Positions 49,959 through 61,513 of a DNA stretch of 64,000 bases are shown in pieces. Both the position numbers and the translations under genes were made by a program. The notes beneath the pieces are model-generated. The model ran no database searches and had not been told where the DNA came from. It saw only the letters and a program-made list of their open reading frames with translations. The stretch lies in contig OZ240241.1 in NCBI GenBank assembly GCA_965198115.1, positions 2,048,001 to 2,112,000 on the forward strand, given 5' to 3'. Numbering within the stretch: position 1 is the stretch's first letter; every line of letters starts with the position of its first letter. Origin of the DNA: Candidatus Latescibacterota bacterium. Lineage in GTDB: Bacteria > Latescibacterota > UBA2968.

Positions 49959-51290
49959 TCACGCGCTTCGTGCCCAGAAGCTCGTCCGATCGTTCAGCTC
50001 GGTTTCCCATCGCGACATCTCACCACGCAGAGCCTTAACGACGTCGGCCTGATCCCGATCTTCGATCAGATTCGTCATTTCCCAAGGATCGGTTTTCAGA
50101 TCGAACAGCTGAGACGTTCGGTTCCCTTCCACTGCGTACTCGATCAGCTTGTGATCCCCACGCTTCGCACTCCGCTGAAACGCCTTGTAGGCGTATAACA
50201 GTGTCTCCCGCACACACTCGGATCCATCCCCCATCGCATTGACCAGACTCTCGCCTTCGACGGAGTCCGGAATCGGAAGGTCGGCCAGATCGAACAACGT
50301 CGGATAGATATCGTTCAGGTAGCAGTACGCCTCCCGGCGCTCGCCCCTCGGAATCCCCGGCCCCCTGAACACCAGAGGAACCCGCACGCTGTGCTCATAG
50401 ACGTTCTGTTTGCCCATCAGACCGTGTTGCCCCACGGCCAGCCCGTTGTCGCCCGCGAACACGACGATCGTATTCTCTCGATGACGCGTTTCTTCCAGCG
50501 TATCTAACAGCCTACCCACCTGTCGATCCAGGTGGGAAATCATCGCGTAATAGTCGGCGAGGTGCTGGCTCACGACCTCGGGCGTTCGGGGAAACGGCGC
50601 CAGTAGCTCGTCCCGCGTCTCCAGATCTCCGTTGTCGAACGGATGTCGCTCAAAACAGTTGGGCGGAAGCTTCAGCTTCTCCGCATCGTAAAGCGCGTGG
50701 AATTCCGGATGCGTATCACGTGGGTCGTGAGGGGCAGTAAACGAGACATACGCGAAAAATGGGGCTTGCCCATCGTAGCTTTTTAGAAAGTCGATCGCCG
50801 CCTCTGAAAACAGATCGCTCGAATGACGCTTGCTTTCTTGATAGATGCCTGCCTCAGCGTAGGTCCCCGATTCGTCGTAGGGATTGAGGGGCACCTTGAA
50901 GTGATCGCTCATTCCACCGAAGAAAATCCGGTCACCGTGGTCGAAGCATCGCGCGAACGCCGGTCGGCCGTTGTGCCACTTTCCCGTCCCGAAGGTCTGA
51001 TACCCGTGATCGCGTAGGGCTTCGGGCATCATGATGTGATTTTCCGGGATCGACTGTCCTTCCCCCTCGAGATGGAAAAGCGTGCGCCCCCGTCATCAGC
51101 ATGGCCCGACTTGGCATGCATACGGCGCCCGACGTCCCCCCATAATGCTGGCCTCGGTGAACATCGTCCCCTCTTCGACCAATCGGTCCAGGTTGGGTGT
51201 AATGACATCGTCGTTCCCGAGCGCGCGAATCGTGTCGTAGCGCTGATCGTCCGTGAACAGAAACAGAATGTTGGGTTTTGAACGGTCCAT
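49959..51290 (-). CDS. Cys-type sulfatase (frameshifts between about 51050 and 51140)
   Basis: [21 protein letters not shown] and GDNG motifs spread across three frames. Confidence 0.85.
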
Positions 51291-51577
51291 CAGTCGCTCT
51301 TCTCGATCTCCCAGCCTGTCAGAAAACTTCGGTCCTCTTCCATCGGCTGACACCAGATCCTCTTCGCCCGAAATCGCACTTCGAATTCGACCATTTCCCC
51401 GCCTCCCGTGTAGGCATCCAGATCATCGATGTCGTCACACCACAGCTGCAGACCCGAGGGACTGATGTCCACGATCTGAACATCCCTGAAGCCTCCACCA
51501 TCGACCTGTGCTTCGACCGGAAGAGCCAACCGCAACCGCGCGTTGCGGCGTTGATCGTTACCCGTTGCTTCTGCCAT
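51290..51577 (-). CDS. PilZ domain protein
   Basis: QRRNAR (RxxxR) and DISPSG (DxSxxG) motifs. Confidence 0.75.
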
Positions 51578-54646: not shown

Positions 54647-54715
54647 TCAGGCATCACGTCCCGCCTCCGCATACTCGATGGGAATCGTGACGATGAATGT
54701 GGAGCCGACACCTAG
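54647..54715 (-). pseudogene. 3' remnant of a histidine kinase, cut at the IS end
   Basis: Reads LGVGSTFIVTIPIEYAEAGRDA*, the typical HATPase C-terminal GxGSTFxVxLP motif; abuts the IS1380 end at 54716. Confidence 0.65.
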
Positions 54716-54735
54716 CCTGAATTATGCATAAAAAA

Positions 54736-56155
54736 GGCTCTATCCGGGTTTCTCAACGGTGAAACTATAGAATGACAAGGTCATAGATCGTTCCCTACGC
54801 TTGGTTGTGTGTGTAGGACAATCAAAGCGAAGGGGGTGCGACCTATGACCGGGAGCAGATTACTATCGAAACTGCTGAGATTCAAGGGGTTCCGTGTTGT
54901 CAGCTGGTGGTTTGAGGGGAGAAGCTGTTTCGTCATCGCCGTAAAGCCACATAAGAATGGTTGTTGTTGTCCGGAGTGCGGCCGTCGAGGTAAAATCGTC
55001 CGCACAATGCCCCATCCGCGTCGGTGGCGTGACATTCCGGTGTGCGGGTGGAGGGTCTGGCTTCTCTACCATCCTCGGGAGATTCGGTGTCCTACCCACG
55101 GTCGTGTGGTCGAGGAGATTCCGTGGGCGGAGCGGTTCTCTCGGGTGACGTATCGCTTCGAGTATGCCATGCTGCGCTACTGCCAGACCATGACGCAGAA
55201 GGCGGCGTCCGAGTTACTGCGCATCTCTGCCTCGACGCTGTCGGATCTCCTTCACCGATCCATCACGCGGCTTCGTGAAGGTCATCGTATCCGAGGGCTC
55301 AAAACCATCGGGATCGACGAGATCTCCTACGCCAAGCGTCACAGGTACGCCACGCTCGTTTACGATCTGGACCGCTCCTGCGTGGTGTGGGTTGGCCGCG
55401 GCAGGGCGCGTAAAACGATCGATCGGTTCTTCACAGAGGCTCTCAGTCCCTACCGGAGATCCAAGATCGAGTGGGCCTGCTGCGACATGAGCGAAGCTTA
55501 CATCGGAGCCATCCAGGAACACTGTCCGAATGCCAAGCTGGTCCTCGATCGCTTTCACATCGTCAAGGCTCTCAATGCCGCCGTTGACGAGGTCCGTAAG
55601 GACCAGTGGCGTAAAGCTGCCCCGGATGAGCGCAAAGCCATGAAGGGCCTCCGATGGCTCCTCTACCGGCACTCAGCGACACGCTCCAGAGGGGATACTC
55701 GGACACTCAAAGCACTGGAGAAGGCGAACTACCGAATCTATAGAGCCTGGAGACTCAAGGACGAGTTCGAGCAGTTCTGGGAATACAAAGCGCCCTGGGC
55801 TGCCGAACGCTTCCTGAAATGCTGGACGACGTCCGCACTCAGAAGTCGACTTGAACCCCTGCGAAAGTTCGTCAGGACCCTGCGACAGCACTTCTTCGGC
55901 GTCCTCGCATTCGTGAACACGCGTCTTACCAACGCCATCGCCGAAGGCCTCAACCGAATCGTCCAAATCGTCAAGAACCGAGCCAGCGGATTCCGCACAC
56001 TCGACGCATTCAACGATATGATCTTCCTTACCGTCGGAGACATAAACATCCCTGAGCAGATTCCGAAGAGGTTCCGCACACGCTAACCGCGCCCCCATGC
56101 CAGGAACCACGGCACCTTCACCCACTTCATCTCGTTGAGAGATCCGGATATAGCC
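54736..56155 (+). mobile_element. ISL3-family insertion sequence
   Basis: Imperfect IRs GGCTCTATCCGGGTTTCTCAACG / CGTTGAGAGATCCGGATATAGCC; flanks ATAAAAAA / ATTAAAAA form an 8-bp direct repeat with one mismatch. Confidence 0.9.
54846..56086 (+). CDS. ISL3 family transposase
   Basis: CPECG zinc finger; IGIDE, CDMS, LDRFH and EGLN motifs. Confidence 0.93.
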
Positions 56156-56242
56156 ATTAAAAAGGTAGTCCCCTTGTACAAGTGTTTGTTTTTCCCTACA
56201 TTTAGGGCTGACACATCAAAACAACACTTGGAAGGAACTACC

Positions 56243-56733
56243 GTGATAGAACCTAGTCAGATCCGGTTACCATTCGCAAGCTTCGGGCAAGGTAGTTGAG
56301 GCTGATTTTGCCGGTGGCGCCGTCAGGAGTGACGGTGGAGTTCTGTTGCTTCGCGCCCTTGAGTCTCAGATGGGATTGATCGCCAGAATGGTAGATGCTT
56401 TGCGAGATCGTCGTCACCCAAGCTATATCGATCACACGCTTTTGGATCTTGTGAAGCAGCGTGTTTTTCAGATCGCTTGCGGCTATGAAGATGCCGTCGA
56501 TTGTGATGATTTGCGCCACGATCCGGGCGTCAAGGCTGCCTGCGATCGGCTTCCTCTTTCCGGTCCTGATCTCGGGAGCCAATCAACGATGACACGACTT
56601 GAGAATGATGTGCGACGCTCGGATTTGTATCGGCTCGCACGGGCTTTTGTAGACGGGTTCATCGCATCGTATGACCAGGCACCCCCAAGCATCATTCTCG
56701 ATATCGACGACACGGATGACCCAACGCACGGTG
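56243..56733 (+). pseudogene. IS1380 transposase 5' fragment
   Basis: SDGGVLLL, QRVFQIACGYED, LRHDP, SQSTMTRLEN and LDIDDTDDPTHG motifs, then similarity stops; frameshift near 56285. Confidence 0.85.
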
Positions 56734-56775
56734 CCGCCCGCGTACTCACACCATGAAGGTCAGAAAGGAATTGTA

Positions 56776-56940
56776 ATGGCGCATCTTCGAAGAATTAATC
56801 GACATAATAACACCAAGAAGAAGAATGGCAACACGCTTTCGTGCGATGACGGGTTCTACTACCCCGCCCCTGCCAAAACCCCCGATCTCAAGTCTGACGA
56901 TCAGGTCCAGGCCAAAGAAGCGAAGAAGAACGTCGCGTAA
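56776..56940 (+). CDS. Putative RiPP precursor peptide (54 aa)
   Basis: AAAGGA RBS; MAHLRRIN resembles the SCIFF leader MKHIKTLN; stop codon is 5 bp before the radical SAM start. Confidence 0.75.
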   Translation: MAHLRRINRHNNTKKKNGNTLSCDDGFYYPAPAKTPDLKSDDQVQAKEAKKNVA

Positions 56941-56945
56941 GGGTA

Positions 56946-58354
56946 ATGCTGAAGAAGTCTGACATCCATCTGTTCGACTACGAAGGCCGCCCAATCGTAC
57001 TTCAGATCCAAACGGGCGATTTCTTCGAAGTCACTCGGCTCGTCGCTGAGATCCTCCGATCGGATGACGGTATCCGTCGCGAGGATCTCGTAGCCGACCT
57101 CTCTCCGAGCCACGGTTTCGAAGCCGTCATCGACGCGCTTTCGGAACTCGAAGCGGCGGACCTGGTCTCGTTCGGCCCAGTCTGCCCGCTCGTCGACTCG
57201 GGGGACGGTGCGGTGGTCCCTCCCACCCGCACGTCCGCCGAGACGATCACGATCACCCTCCACGTTTCGCACGCCTGTAACGTCACCTGCTCGTACTGCT
57301 TTGCACTCGGCGGCGACTATGGCGGGGAACCCAAGCTGATGGCCTGGAAACGGCGAAGCAGACTGTGGATTGGCTGATCGAGGCAACTCGAGATGCGGGT
57401 CGGTGTCAGATCGACTTCTTCGGAGGCGAGCCGCTCCTCCATCTCGGCCTCGTGAAGAAGACCGTGGCTTATGCGCGCCAGCAGGGCGCTGCGAACGGCG
57501 TTGCGGTTTCGTTCGGAATGACGACGAACGGAACCCTCCTATCGGGCGACGCACTCGAGTTCCTGATGGAAGAAGACATTGGAATCATGGTCAGCATCGA
57601 CAGCCCCAAGGAAGTCCACGACGCACAGCGCAGCTTCAATAACGGTGAGTCGACGTACGACATCGTGGCGGCGAACACGACAGAAGCTGCCCGCCGTGCG
57701 CCCGACAAGGTCTTGCTCCGGGCGACGATGACGAATAAAAACCTCGACATGATGGCCCTCGTGGACGAACTCGAGGGTTTCGAGGTCAATTCCGTTGGTG
57801 TCGGACCAGCGTGGCTTTCTCATCATCATCCTACGGCGATTCGGAAAGAGCACCTCCCCGAACTCAGGAAGCACATCCGAACGCTCGCAAACGATGAGCT
57901 GAAGCGTATCAAAGAGGGGCACAAGGCTGAAACATTCGCACCATTGATCAAGAAAGTCTTGTCGGGACAGAAGCGGGAATACGGGTGTGGTGGTGGGAAG
58001 ACCTACTTTGGCGTCGACGTCGATGGCGACATCTATTTCTGCTCGGCCTTCGGCAGCATGCCCGAATACAAAATGGGCGACGTCTGGAAGGGGCTGGACC
58101 CCACGGTGGACGCACGTTTCCGACGCGACTTCCACGTCGACAACAAGAAGACGTGCAGCCAGTGCTGGGCCCGATACCTCTGTGGCGGAGGCTGTGCCTA
58201 CGATGCCAGGGTATCAACCGGCGAACCCACCGAACCCAATCCGGTCGCTTGCGAGCGTACCCGCTACTCGCACGAACTCGCAATGGGAATGGCTCTCGAG
58301 CTGAGCGACCACGCACCGGATGCACTCGACCGCCTCCAGATCGAAAAGGTCTGA
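56946..58354 (+). CDS. RRE-radical SAM-SPASM peptide maturase (CteB/QhpD-like), frameshift near 57347
   Basis: CNVTCSYC, FFGGEP, TTNGT, SID; SPASM CX12GX4C...CX2CX5CX3C...C; N-terminal PqqD/RRE-like domain. Confidence 0.9.
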
Positions 58355-58364
58355 CGGAGATAAA

Positions 58365-59786
58365 ATGAGCAATCAAACACACACGACAAAGACCCCCTTG
58401 CCGATGGCGGAAACCCCAGAAAGTGCCCCCTCTGCGGGTCTAAATGCTTCGGCAAGGGGGCCGAAACGTCTCCCCCACGAGGGTTGGATGTTGGCTCCCC
58501 TCTATGTCGCCGAACATCATCTGTTCGAGCACAATGGTCGCACGCTTCTCTTTGGCGTCGGAACGGCCGACTTCTTCGAGATCGATGATGTCGTCGAGGA
58601 TGTGCTGAAGACAATCGAGGGCACCACACTCATCCAGCTGTTCGAGCGTCTTCGATCCTCTCACGGCGAAAAGGATCTCTACAGCGCAGTCCGCGAACTC
58701 CGTGAGGCCGAGATCGTTTCCGAAGAGCGGCTTGCCCGCCCGACGGCACCGGTCCTTCCCGGTCGTCTCGAAGTTTCGGAAATCGTCCTTGAAGTAACCA
58801 CGGATTCTCTGTCAGCACAGAGCGGGAGTCAGTATCTCCGTCCGGCGACCGGTCGAGAGGCCATCAGACTGTTGATGGAGGAGTCGGGGTGTCTCCGCAC
58901 GTGTTCCCTCACGCTCACGGGAGAGCCACTCCTCAATTCCCAGCTCACACTCGATCTGCTCGATCACGCCATCGAACGCGCCGAGCAGATCGGCAAGCGA
59001 TTGCGCCTGGCCGTCGTCACCAATCCAAGATTGGTGAACGAGCGTATTCGTATCTCGCTGAAGCGTCGTGGTGTCGATCTCGTCATCAACGACACAGCGG
59101 GTACGCTCGAAGGCGTGCACGGCTCGGGACCGGCCAGCCTGCAGAGAAGCGCGCTCACGAGTAGTCCACCCACGCATCTTCGCATCGAATCGGTGGATGA
59201 AACGCCGGTGCACCAGATTCGAGAGGCTTTAGACGAAAATCAAAACCTCGCGACGGTCGATCTCCCACCATCGACACCCGGACACCTCTGTCCTGTCTCC
59301 GAAAGAGATCTCGAAGAACTCAGCGCATTCGTCAGCCAGCACGTCATGTCCTCGAAAATGACCTGGATCGGCCCGATCGAGGACTCGGCGGCTCAAGTCT
59401 TCAACGGCCGCCGCGCCAGCTACGGCGACTCAGCTGGCATCACCAGTCTCGCTGTTGGCTGCGATGGAACGATTTACGTGTCCGAAGAAGTCATCGGAGA
59501 TTCCCGCTACCGGATGGGCCACATCCAGAGTGGGCTCGATCAGGGCCGGCGGGCTCAGTGGATTCGAGAAGCCCACGTCGATGCCCGACCCGGCTGCCAG
59601 ACCTGTTGGGCCCGACATCTCTGCGGTGGCGGGTCGACGGTGGCGGTGGGCAATTGCCCAGATCCCGACTCCGACTACTGCACGATCGTGCGTCGGTCCT
59701 ACGAACTGGCAATGGGTTTATGCGTAGACCTCGACGTGCGAAACCCCGATCTCCTCGAACAACGCTACGGACAGGGTGCTGCGTGA
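58365..59786 (+). CDS. Degenerate RRE-radical SAM-SPASM paralog lacking CxxxCxxC
   Basis: N-terminus aligns with the first maturase (HLFE...TADFFEI); LTGEPLL; CQTCWARHLCGGGS...YC. Confidence 0.82.
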   Translation: MSNQTHTTKTPLPMAETPESAPSAGLNASARGPKRLPHEGWMLAPLYVAEHHLFEHNGRTLLFGVGTADFFEIDDVVEDVLKTIEGTTLIQLFERLRSSHGEKDLYSAVRELREAEIVSEERLARPTAPVLPGRLEVSEIVLEVTTDSLSAQSGSQYLRPATGREAIRLLMEESGCLRTCSLTLTGEPLLNSQLTLDLLDHAIERAEQIGKRLRLAVVTNPRLVNERIRISLKRRGVDLVINDTAGTLEGVHGSGPASLQRSALTSSPPTHLRIESVDETPVHQIREALDENQNLATVDLPPSTPGHLCPVSERDLEELSAFVSQHVMSSKMTWIGPIEDSAAQVFNGRRASYGDSAGITSLAVGCDGTIYVSEEVIGDSRYRMGHIQSGLDQGRRAQWIREAHVDARPGCQTCWARHLCGGGSTVAVGNCPDPDSDYCTIVRRSYELAMGLCVDLDVRNPDLLEQRYGQGAA

Positions 59787-60990
59787 ACATCCTCTTCTAC
59801 CAGGACACGTCGGGAGTCAGCGGGGCGGAGATATGGATCGCCGACGCCGCTCGACGTCTGCGCGAGCGAGGGCACGGGATCAGCCTGTCAGCGCCGACCG
59901 AATCCTGGATAGCTGCCCAAGACCGGCATCACGGATTCCCGCTCGTCGATTTCTTCTCCGGCGATGGATTCGACGCCCATCGGCGGTGGATCCTGGCTGA
60001 ACATCTTTCTGCAGCGAGCGTAGACATCGTGGTGTGCAGCATTCCCGGCGCAAGGATGGAGGTGCCACTCCTAGATCAAGCGATTCGGGATGCGGGACGA
60101 GGTAAAATCCTGATTCGTCTGGGTGTCGCCCCTGGCGAAGGCGCCTTTCCACCCGAACGAGTGGGCTACGGCTACGACACCGTTAGTGGGATCATTGCTG
60201 TCTCCCGCGACGTCAAGCATCATCTCGTCCGCAACTTCCCGATGCTCGACAGAGACAGAATCCACGTCGTCTACAATGGCGTCGACCTCGAGCGATTCGG
60301 TCCAGAAACCCACAGCGACGTCGAACGTGCCTCCCAGCGACGCGACCTGGACATTCCCGCCGACCACCGTGTCGTCGCGGCCGTCGGACGGCTCGATCCG
60401 ATCAAGAATCTGCCTTGCCTGATCGACGCAGCCGACATCGTCCTCGAGCGCTTCCCCGCGACCACCTTCGTCATCGCTGGCGACGGTGCAGAACGCGTCA
60501 CGCTCGAAAAATGCGGTCGTCTCCAAAGGGTTGAGTGACGCCTTTTCGCTTTCCCGGTTTCGTCAAAGATGTCCCTGGACTGTTGTCCATCGTCGACATC
60601 GTCGTGCATCCCTCCCTGTCGGAGGGCGTACCCAACACGCTTTTGGAAGCAATGGCTGCCCAGAAGGCCGTGGTGGCATCCGAGGTCGGTGGAATTTCGG
60701 AGGTCGTCGACAATCCTGAAGTCGGCGTGCTCGTTCCCCCCGCCAGTCCATCGGCTCTGGCCGAGACACTCACATCCCTCGTCGGCAGCGAGGATCGACG
60801 CGCAGGACTGGGCTCGAGGGCCCGAGCGCACGTTCTATCTCACTTTGACCGAGCCACCAACATCAGACAGATCGAAGACCTGTTCGACCAGGTTCTACGA
60901 TCGGCAACACCGCTCGCACCGGCGTCCGAACAGCAGCTATACGATCCACCCTACGCGTTTACTGCGCGTGACCATCTGTTGCGTGCATAG
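59783..60990 (+). CDS. GT4 (GT-B) glycosyltransferase (frameshifts between about 60510 and 60550)
   Basis: SGAE, VYNGVD, VGRLDPIKN, PSLSEGVPNTLLEAMA and VGGISE motifs; GTGA overlap with the upstream gene. Confidence 0.88.
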
Positions 60991-61123
60991 TCTGCCGGCG
61001 GCCGTCGGGTGGGCCGCCGGTGGACCATAGATTGGGAACCCCACAAAAGCTTCAGACGTGCAAAGAGTCGGGCAATCTTCTTCTGGGAGGATGCCCGTTT
61101 GTTTTTGACTAAACAGGCCTTCA

Positions 61124-61513
61124 ATGCCGAAGATTCTCCTCATCGACGACGAACCTGACGTGCGACACGTCACGCGGGAGTGCCTGTCAACCAAGGGCTT
61201 CGAGGTCGATATCCCGGCCGTCGAAGACTCGGCCATATCCCGCTCGACCGTTCAAGCGGCCACGACGGACGGATACGATCTGATCATTCTCGATCTCCGA
61301 CTCCCACACCTGGACCCGTTCGATCTGATTCGATCCGTAAACGAATCAGAGGGTCCGCCGATCATGGTTCTGGCCGGTTTTCTGTCGCTGGAGCTCGAGA
61401 GCAGCCTGCGAGCAGCCGGAGTCCATTCGTTCACGACCAAACCGTTTACATTTTCGGATCTCCTGTCCTCGGTCGAAGAGTGCATGGCATCATCGGTGGC
61501 CGTCCGTATTTGA
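61124..61513 (+). CDS. Single-domain response regulator
   Basis: ILLIDDE, ILDLRLP and TKPF motifs. Confidence 0.85.
   Translation: MPKILLIDDEPDVRHVTRECLSTKGFEVDIPAVEDSAISRSTVQAATTDGYDLIILDLRLPHLDPFDLIRSVNESEGPPIMVLAGFLSLELESSLRAAGVHSFTTKPFTFSDLLSSVEECMASSVAVRI

Follow-up and report, generated by a model that had tools for sequence, protein, structure and literature searches.

The window, a 64,000-nucleotide stretch of a Candidatus Latescibacterota contig, carries a forward-strand gene cluster headed by a precursor peptide gene (56776..56940, +) that encodes 54 amino acids, among them one cysteine (C23). The translation of this interval is identical to the peptide quoted in the initial annotation, including its length and its single Cys. 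Read from the N terminus, the peptide comprises the leader motif H3-LRRI-N8 (56782-56799, +), the residues L21-S22-C23 (+; Cys codon 56842-56844), the core D-D-G-F27-Y28-Y29-P30, in which Tyr29 is encoded by 56860-56862 (+), and a basic follower whose C-terminal end reads KKNVA. An RBS-like GAAAGGA (56763..56769, +) lies 6 nt 5' of the precursor ATG, and the start codon of a radical-SAM gene lies 5 nt 3' of the precursor stop. This maturase gene is read in two pieces: an N-terminal piece with an RRE-type domain and CxxxCxxC (56946..57377, +), whose frame breaks near 57344-57349, and, in a different frame, a C-terminal piece with the barrel and a seven-Cys SPASM domain (57344..58354, +). It is followed by a pseudo-radical-SAM paralog in an intact ORF of 480 aa (58344..59786, +) and by a GT4 glycosyltransferase (59783..60990, +), which overlaps the pseudo-enzyme stop with its start and occupies two frames that split near 60520-60544. 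Downstream lies a stand-alone response-regulator receiver (61124..61513, +), 31% identical to the receiver behind the GT4 gene in locus L091, whose membership in the cluster is uncertain.

Reading frame and state of the local copy

The initial annotation had feared an indel in the C runs of the core, which would change the peptide's tail, and the alternative frame that it gave, PCQNPRSQV*, does occur in the sequence. This concern is dispelled by the retention of the called-frame tail, PAP..[PD/AE]LK, in an independent homolog (P0003, 73% identical) and in P0236. Logan contigs across 56705-61100, built separately from two runs of a single sample that is possibly the assembly's own source, likewise match the assembly with 0 differences and 0 gaps. 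A longer ORF beginning at 56671 was considered and discarded, as that start lies within an IS1380 remnant and is unused by homologs. Genome-wide, the pattern H[LIM][KR]x[IVL]N falls within the first 14 residues of 2 of 42,629 ATG-started frames of 40-90 codons, one of the two being the precursor ORF. Judged by comparison with its homologs, in which the leader, the lone Cys and the tail are kept, the 54-aa ORF is a real precursor gene. The source genome yielded neither a further copy of the peptide or the enzyme nor a paralogous precursor.

Only 41 nt of sequence 5' of the precursor ATG are not derived from insertion sequences (IS). Beyond them lies a composite mobile element (54712..56734, +), made up of the left part of an IS1380 that ends mid-transposase at 56734 and an ISL3 inside this IS1380 copy (about 54736-56155; transposase 54809-56086). 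The last 44 nt of the IS1380 piece run on into the remainder of the transposase in 32 of 35 genome copies, while the local copy stops; no unpaired right half of IS1380 was found in the genome. We also considered the 580-bp IS1380 piece as an independent miniature element and rejected this reading because other copies extend into full transposases. Across the source genome, IS expansion is heavy, with full-length ISL3 present in 223 copies and IS1380 giving 68 hits, of which 18 are at least 1300 nt and many are interrupted by other elements. On the opposite strand of the window, a sulfatase gene (49959-51353, -) is split over three frames, and Logan contigs from the same sample agree with this arrangement, gap-free.

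At the cluster, the IS sequence occupies the place that holds the sigma-54 activator and the promoter in relatives, where a giant kinase-AAA-TPR-GAF-sigma-54 activator gene stands directly upstream of the cassette and a GG-N10-GC site ends 43-108 nt before the start of 38 of 42 precursors. The four precursors without a clear site are the closest kin of the window precursor; among these, a weaker site stands at that same distance in L041 and L088 and farther up in L083. Upstream of the window precursor, we found no sigma-54 site within 250 nt (score -4.2) and nothing above shuffles in a sigma-70 scan, and the giant activator's N-terminal part had no match in the source genome. Since both the enzyme and the GT4 gene are frameshifted locally and the promoter and activator region has been replaced by IS sequence, the pathway is probably inactive in the source genome and its copy there probably a decaying remnant, a breakage that the initial annotation did not mention. 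That the frameshifts are instead sequencing artefacts and the local cluster is intact and active strikes us as improbable. Such errors would fit the indels seen in 64 of the 223 full ISL3 copies (75 gap openings in 317 kb) and the likewise fragmented long-contig proteins of close relatives (P0006, P0007 and P0065), and the confirming runs come from one sample, possibly the source of the assembly; however, both breaks and the IS junction recur, free of gaps, in the contigs built separately from each run, the neighbouring split sulfatase is equally reproduced, the activator's N-terminal part is unmatched in the genome and a sigma-54 site is missing within 250 nt.

A family of single-cysteine precursors

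An alignment-based scan of 185,579 species genomes yielded 46 loci, 42 of which carry a Latescibacterota record label, and metagenomes supplied 7 more; a DNA-pattern scan with a single enzyme yielded nothing. Within the phylum, close enzyme relatives occur in 25 of 168 genomes, the source genome included; a search of one congeneric genome found none. Within the family, identity to the L088 enzyme is 41% or more, and beyond the family it falls to ~30-35%. Forty-two precursors were read by their position upstream of homologous enzymes, and profile searches added 104 protein clusters and 14 close-branch peptides, two repeat proteins (P0235 and P0238) having been removed from 17 close-branch hits. 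Counts of core features across the whole set cover 148 precursors, leaving out P0231 and P0232 (frame-slipped tails) and P0004 (a near-copy) and re-anchoring P0179 on its second Cys; those for the closest relatives cover 20; and one earlier count covers 137, without P0229 (leader pattern missed) and without P0223, a cluster that lacks the core Cys and appears frame-slipped. At L072 (6735-7008) the precursor is frameshifted in the assembly, and P0243 represents an almost identical peptide in unbroken form. At L063 and L065, ~260 extra bases separate the precursor from the enzyme, and genomes of genus g4 (e.g. G015, G023 and G025) hold two to three paralogous cassettes each, with differing cores.

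The precursors fall into three types. The window type reads H-L-x-x-I-N…L-S-C, followed by an aromatic core and a basic tail; the second is marked by C-x-W-P-x-F-P-[IVL] and the third by C-x6-V-P-P-L-P-F-P with a poly-Asp tail. All 20 of the closest precursors contain H[LIM][KR]x[IVL]N in the leader and a single, post-leader Cys preceded by [LM]-S, which bears out the initial proposal of a RiPP-type precursor with a ranthipeptide-like H-hydrophobic-x-x-hydrophobic-N leader, an aromatic core and a leader-core-follower layout. The Cys lies 20-24 residues past the leader His in 16 of these 20. The same proposal had made conservation of the literal CDDGFYY core its own test, and this string recurs neither among the closest precursors (1/20) nor in the wider set (1/137). 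The close-branch consensus is H-Φ-x-x-Φ-N…[LM]-S-C-x4-F-x-[YF]-(P), and the window peptide is one residue shorter: C-x4-[FH]-x-[YF] occurs in 12 of the 20, C-x3-F-x-[YF] in three (the window peptide, P0003 and P0240) and a form one residue longer in one. The P0236 core, CEDGGFYYPAP, is the full-length form of the window core.

A hydrophobic residue is present at Cys+7 in 142 of 148 precursors, and five of the six exceptions are hydrophobic at +6 and the sixth at +8; among the closest 20, the +7 residue is aromatic in 16. Val accounts for 117 of the 142, mostly from one genus, so that the count overstates independence, and peptides found by profile are biased towards the profile, although 41 of the 42 position-found precursors still show a hydrophobic +7 residue. 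The 148 cores include 106 distinct 9-mers. Between L041 and L088, the leader has a pS of 0.62 and a pN of 0.07, the core a pN of 0.68 and the tail a pN of 0; among 31 poly-Asp-type genes, pN/pS is 0.96 in the core and 0.17 at +7..+13, the pairs in this comparison not being independent. Leader and tail are under purifying selection and the core runs free, a pattern from which we argue that the family genes are translated.

Searches of NCBIfam and Pfam with 31 precursors gave no meaningful match, only unrelated hits with E of 0.04-0.26; a PDB search with the precursor profile gave immunoglobulin chance matches only, and an ESM Atlas search no usable match. A literature search on Latescibacterota ranthipeptides or RiPPs and on inactive radical-SAM paralogs, which covered sources other than subscription journals and supplements (e.g. 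PMC10288494 and the PMC12710340 datasets), found no description of the family. On the sequence evidence, namely an enzyme within the family clade, a lone Cys and a hydrophobic residue at +6/+7, the window precursor and its enzyme belong to a single-Cys family of Ca. Latescibacterota.

The radical-SAM maturase and its predicted chemistry

The PDB structure nearest to the enzyme is CteB (5WGG, E 3e-61), with anSME second (E 2e-19), and its best NCBIfam models, all below their cutoffs, are those for SCIFF, PapB, QhpD and nif11 maturases. The SCIFF maturase model TIGR03974 gives 245-280 bits for all four of four intact family members against a cutoff of 425, the PapB model NF047865 gives 222-276 bits for intact members against 340, and the QhpD model TIGR03906 gives 235-268 bits against 453. 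On the window enzyme, TIGR03974 scores 43 and 205 bits on the two pieces, and NF047865 is the top model for the C-terminal piece with 212 bits. The seven SPASM cysteines of the window enzyme (C208, C226, C264, C267, C273, C277 and C296) align one to one with those of CteB, and 49 of 53 family proteins share the seven-Cys pattern. A quick tree of 55 proteins (SH-aLRT support, midpoint root, long outgroup branches) sets 34 family rows on one side of a 99-supported branch and four proteins that pass the SCIFF cutoff apart from them. In 27 of 49 family enzymes, but not in the branch of the window enzyme, an additional Cys precedes the first AuxI Cys by three residues (K-x-C-[HY]-G-C; C-x2-C); the enzymes that carry it lie within P0009-P0061 (e.g. 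L043-L085). This eighth Cys is a possible ligand that could close the open AuxI iron, and the branches with and without it may differ in AuxI ligation and chemistry.

The SCIFF/thermocellin pair CteA-CteB (TIGR03974; PDB 5WGG, 5WHY) has the same arrangement of RRE, radical-SAM and seven-Cys SPASM domains in its enzyme. We take the CteA leader to be of the H-Φ-x-x-Φ-N type, as in the window precursor, and the HIxxI RRE motif to be the SCIFF leader; the reach from His3 of CteA to Cys21 is presumably similar to the leader His-Cys spacing of the family. HIxxI is listed among RRE recognition motifs in PMC12710340. SCIFF precursors nonetheless have six Cys in ~45 aa, whereas the window peptide has one in 54 aa and, with it, a hypervariable aromatic core and a follower; enzyme identity is about 30% with scores below the 425-bit cutoff, the window precursor (P0001) matches no curated family model, and the family's pseudo-enzyme, GT4 and giant sigma-54 activator are without counterpart in CteA-CteB. 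With ranthipeptides as a class, the family shares an adjoining RRE-radical-SAM/SPASM enzyme related to ranthisynthases and the seven-Cys SPASM domain; unlike most characterised members, it has no conserved Asp/Glu/Asn/Thr acceptor near the Cys, such residues occurring there in 86 of 148 precursors without a fixed position.

More specific parallels are likewise partial. The leader of PapA, from the PapA/PapB (freyrasin; NF047865) system, also has a conserved Asn (PMC9413430), but the window peptide has no CX3D motif (Phe stands at +4) and would form a single ring against the six of PapA. QhpC/QhpD (TIGR03906) belongs to the same enzyme neighbourhood, with a thioether-forming QhpD whose model reaches up to 268 bits; in contrast to QhpC, the precursor has one Cys and no Cys-Asp/Glu pattern, and amine dehydrogenase subunit genes were seen neither in the window nor as a recurring feature of the loci. 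Methanogen CrpA/CrpC, as described in PMC13692751, likewise combines a seven-Cys SPASM ranthisynthase-like enzyme with an acid-free cross-link motif, although CrpC acts on a Cys-rich protein of 29 kDa that carries short motifs. NxxcA and KgrA also carry a single thioether per peptide (PMC8326336, PMC10288494), which in NxxcA links Cys to an upstream Asn, while KgrA is a sactipeptide; both differ from our reading of the window peptide. Triceptide and cyclophane RiPPs have an aromatic-x-x motif in all cores and a cyclophane maturase, and neither was found here.

In our preferred model, the RRE-type domain of the enzyme would bind the H-L-R-R-I-N leader, Cys23 would sit on the AuxI iron, and a hydrogen would be abstracted from the hydrophobic +6/+7 residue, which is Tyr29 in the window peptide. 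The resulting thioether would close a single small ring with a variable interior, spanning seven residues in the window peptide and eight in most relatives. The invariant Cys, its fixed spacing to a hydrophobic residue and the placement of the enzyme beside ranthipeptide synthases support a thioether, and that the enzyme forms one is likely. Whether the +6/+7 residue is the acceptor we regard as evenly balanced. The +7 residue could alternatively serve in binding or mark a protease site, and the cluster showed neither a protease nor an exporter gene. For the complete proposal, in which the neighbouring radical-SAM/SPASM enzyme would hold the leader and join Cys23 to Tyr29, our confidence is again midway. 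Attack at C-beta rather than C-alpha is favoured on the basis of the enzyme's clade, and Val, Ile, Phe and Tyr all have a tertiary or benzylic C-beta-H. The open AuxI iron of CteB takes a peptide Cys, Cys21 of CteA, as a ligand (PMC6231123, PMC8326336). A review lists Asn, Thr, Asp and Glu as ranthipeptide acceptors (PMC8326336), and CrpC is reported to make a ranthionine-type link within the acid-free motif CPLV (PMC13692751).

The thioether could also form elsewhere, at +5 (the Phe27 equivalent), at the following Pro or at C-alpha as a sactionine whatever the side chain, which we judge unlikely. The +5 residue is hydrophobic or Pro in 142 of 148 precursors, +8 is Pro in 119 of 137, and the acceptor of CteB itself is reported differently across studies (PMC8326336). 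Yet residues at +5 vary far more (F 60, I 36, P 23) than those at +7, the CxWPxFP branch has Leu at +8, where just 9 of the 20 close peptides have Pro, and a C-alpha link is at odds with an enzyme that groups with non-alpha thioether synthases.

The Cys-Asp thioether put forward at first would be PapB- or QhpD-like and would join Cys23 to the beta carbon of D24 or D25. Since PapB accepts Cys-Asp spacings of 0 to 6 (CX0D to CX6D; PMC9413430), both Asp residues are chemically available in the window peptide. Its relatives favour this link to the extent that 13 of the closest 20 have D/E at +1, and the PapB and QhpD models score almost as high as SCIFF on the enzyme. However, D/E occupies +4 in 3 of these 20 and is absent from +1..+6 in another count of 3, which includes the position-found L041; across the whole set it stands at +4 in 15 of 148, anywhere in +1..+7 in 49 and nowhere in that interval in 99, even though the enzymes form one clade. 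As the chemistry of the family the Cys-Asp link is thus not upheld, and for the window peptide, where it could apply, we consider it rather improbable.

The same initial proposal named a Tyr/Phe cross-link, which fits best when taken as Cys to an aromatic residue. An aromatic-to-aromatic version, with a cyclophane-like C-C or C-O bond in F-x-Y and the Cys spared or glycosylated, is very unlikely: F-x-[YF] does occur in 16 of the 20 close precursors (12, 3 and 1 by spacing) and GT4 accompanies this branch, but aromatic residues are absent from +1..+8 in 32 of 148 cores, the Cys is invariant even in loci without GT4, and cyclophane maturase models give 49-66 bits on the window enzyme (YhhB 66 against a cutoff of 445, FxsB 49 against 370) compared with 190-212 for thioether synthases. 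Oxidation of the Cys without a ring (formylglycine-type, as by an anaerobic sulfatase maturase) or cleavage to a reactive N-terminus is the least probable, for although the Cys directly follows a conserved, cleavage-adjacent-like L-S and anSME is the second-best PDB match, that match is much weaker in E-value and in model score (77 bits against 205-212), anSME clusters are fully ligated (PMC6231123) whereas the window branch has seven Cys, and the fixed spacing from Cys to +7 is left unexplained.

The pseudo-enzyme, the glycosyltransferase and their possible role

The pseudo-enzyme keeps the N-terminal three-strand/three-helix domain, the barrel, the GEPLLN motif and most AuxII cysteines, but has neither the CxxxCxxC loop nor the AuxI cysteines. 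This motif loss is common to seven of eight aligned paralogs, the exception being that of L079, and in the quick tree the paralogs group together as sister to the active enzymes. An alignment-based model of the protein (pLDDT 86; a single-sequence fold at pLDDT 39 was discarded) opens with strands and helices, three of each, in the RRE order, and the best fold match of this predicted model is CteB (TM 0.74). The same GT4 gene lies directly 3' of the paralog in L042, L046, L072, L083, L088, L091, L092, L132 and the window, with L083 and L091 being near-copies, and L041 ends before the GT4 position. Paralog and GT4 are both absent from the 34 poly-Asp-type loci, 2 of which are cut off downstream.

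An intact, conserved protein of leader-binding type that has no catalytic ligands and is translationally coupled to a transferase without such a domain suggests an adaptor role. We tentatively propose that the catalytic-motif-less paralog may bind the leader and present the peptide to GT4 for glycosylation. Tyr at +7 is not common to all GT4 loci.

Other loci show further gene arrangements around the maturase. The second radical-SAM paralog of L079 (8530-10008) keeps CxxxCxxC, has lost most SPASM cysteines, a mirror image of the pseudo-enzymes, and is followed by a different GT4. An extra gene with an RRE-like N-terminus sits between the two radical-SAM genes in L072 (8410-9774), L083 (3773-6160) and L091 (3109-5496); in L083, L091 and L092 it is fused to a GT9 domain and is a candidate natural RRE-glycosyltransferase fusion. 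In poly-Asp-type loci, the enzyme is often followed by a ~300-aa methyltransferase-looking protein (L051, 8572-9480, and 14 similar ORFs), a reading that rests on an ILEFGSG motif in a protein with no Pfam match.

The element that is new here is the aromatic branch with its pseudo-enzyme and GT4 module, within a ranthipeptide-like kind of system. The product might most plausibly be a molecule that is secreted for signalling or competition, is specific to the strain and is controlled through sigma-54. The most far-reaching picture is of a class of glycosylated thioether peptides from one uncultured lineage, in more than 100 versions, in which a Cys-to-beta-carbon ring to an aromatic or branched acceptor would enclose a freely varying loop and a dead duplicate of the enzyme would recruit GT4; taken as a whole, we find this picture doubtful.

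Single-Cys precursors of this kind are easily missed, since the training set of the RODEO sactipeptide/ranthipeptide module is described in PMC10288494 as having no single-Cys examples, and the ranthipeptide clusters reported for Latescibacterota at the antiSMASH level come without a named precursor in the accessible text of PMC12993501. Being part of a broken cluster, the window copy lends itself poorly to testing; the chemistry can be tested directly on intact loci, L088 for example. If the proposed reading is true, ranthipeptide chemistry would extend past acid, amide and hydroxyl acceptors, and the family would possess an enzyme able to close a ring over nearly any sequence lying between the Cys and a hydrophobic residue, a property useful for making cyclic peptides. 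The conserved dead paralog and the glycosyltransferase, for their part, would give a tailoring enzyme its leader recognition in an unusual way.
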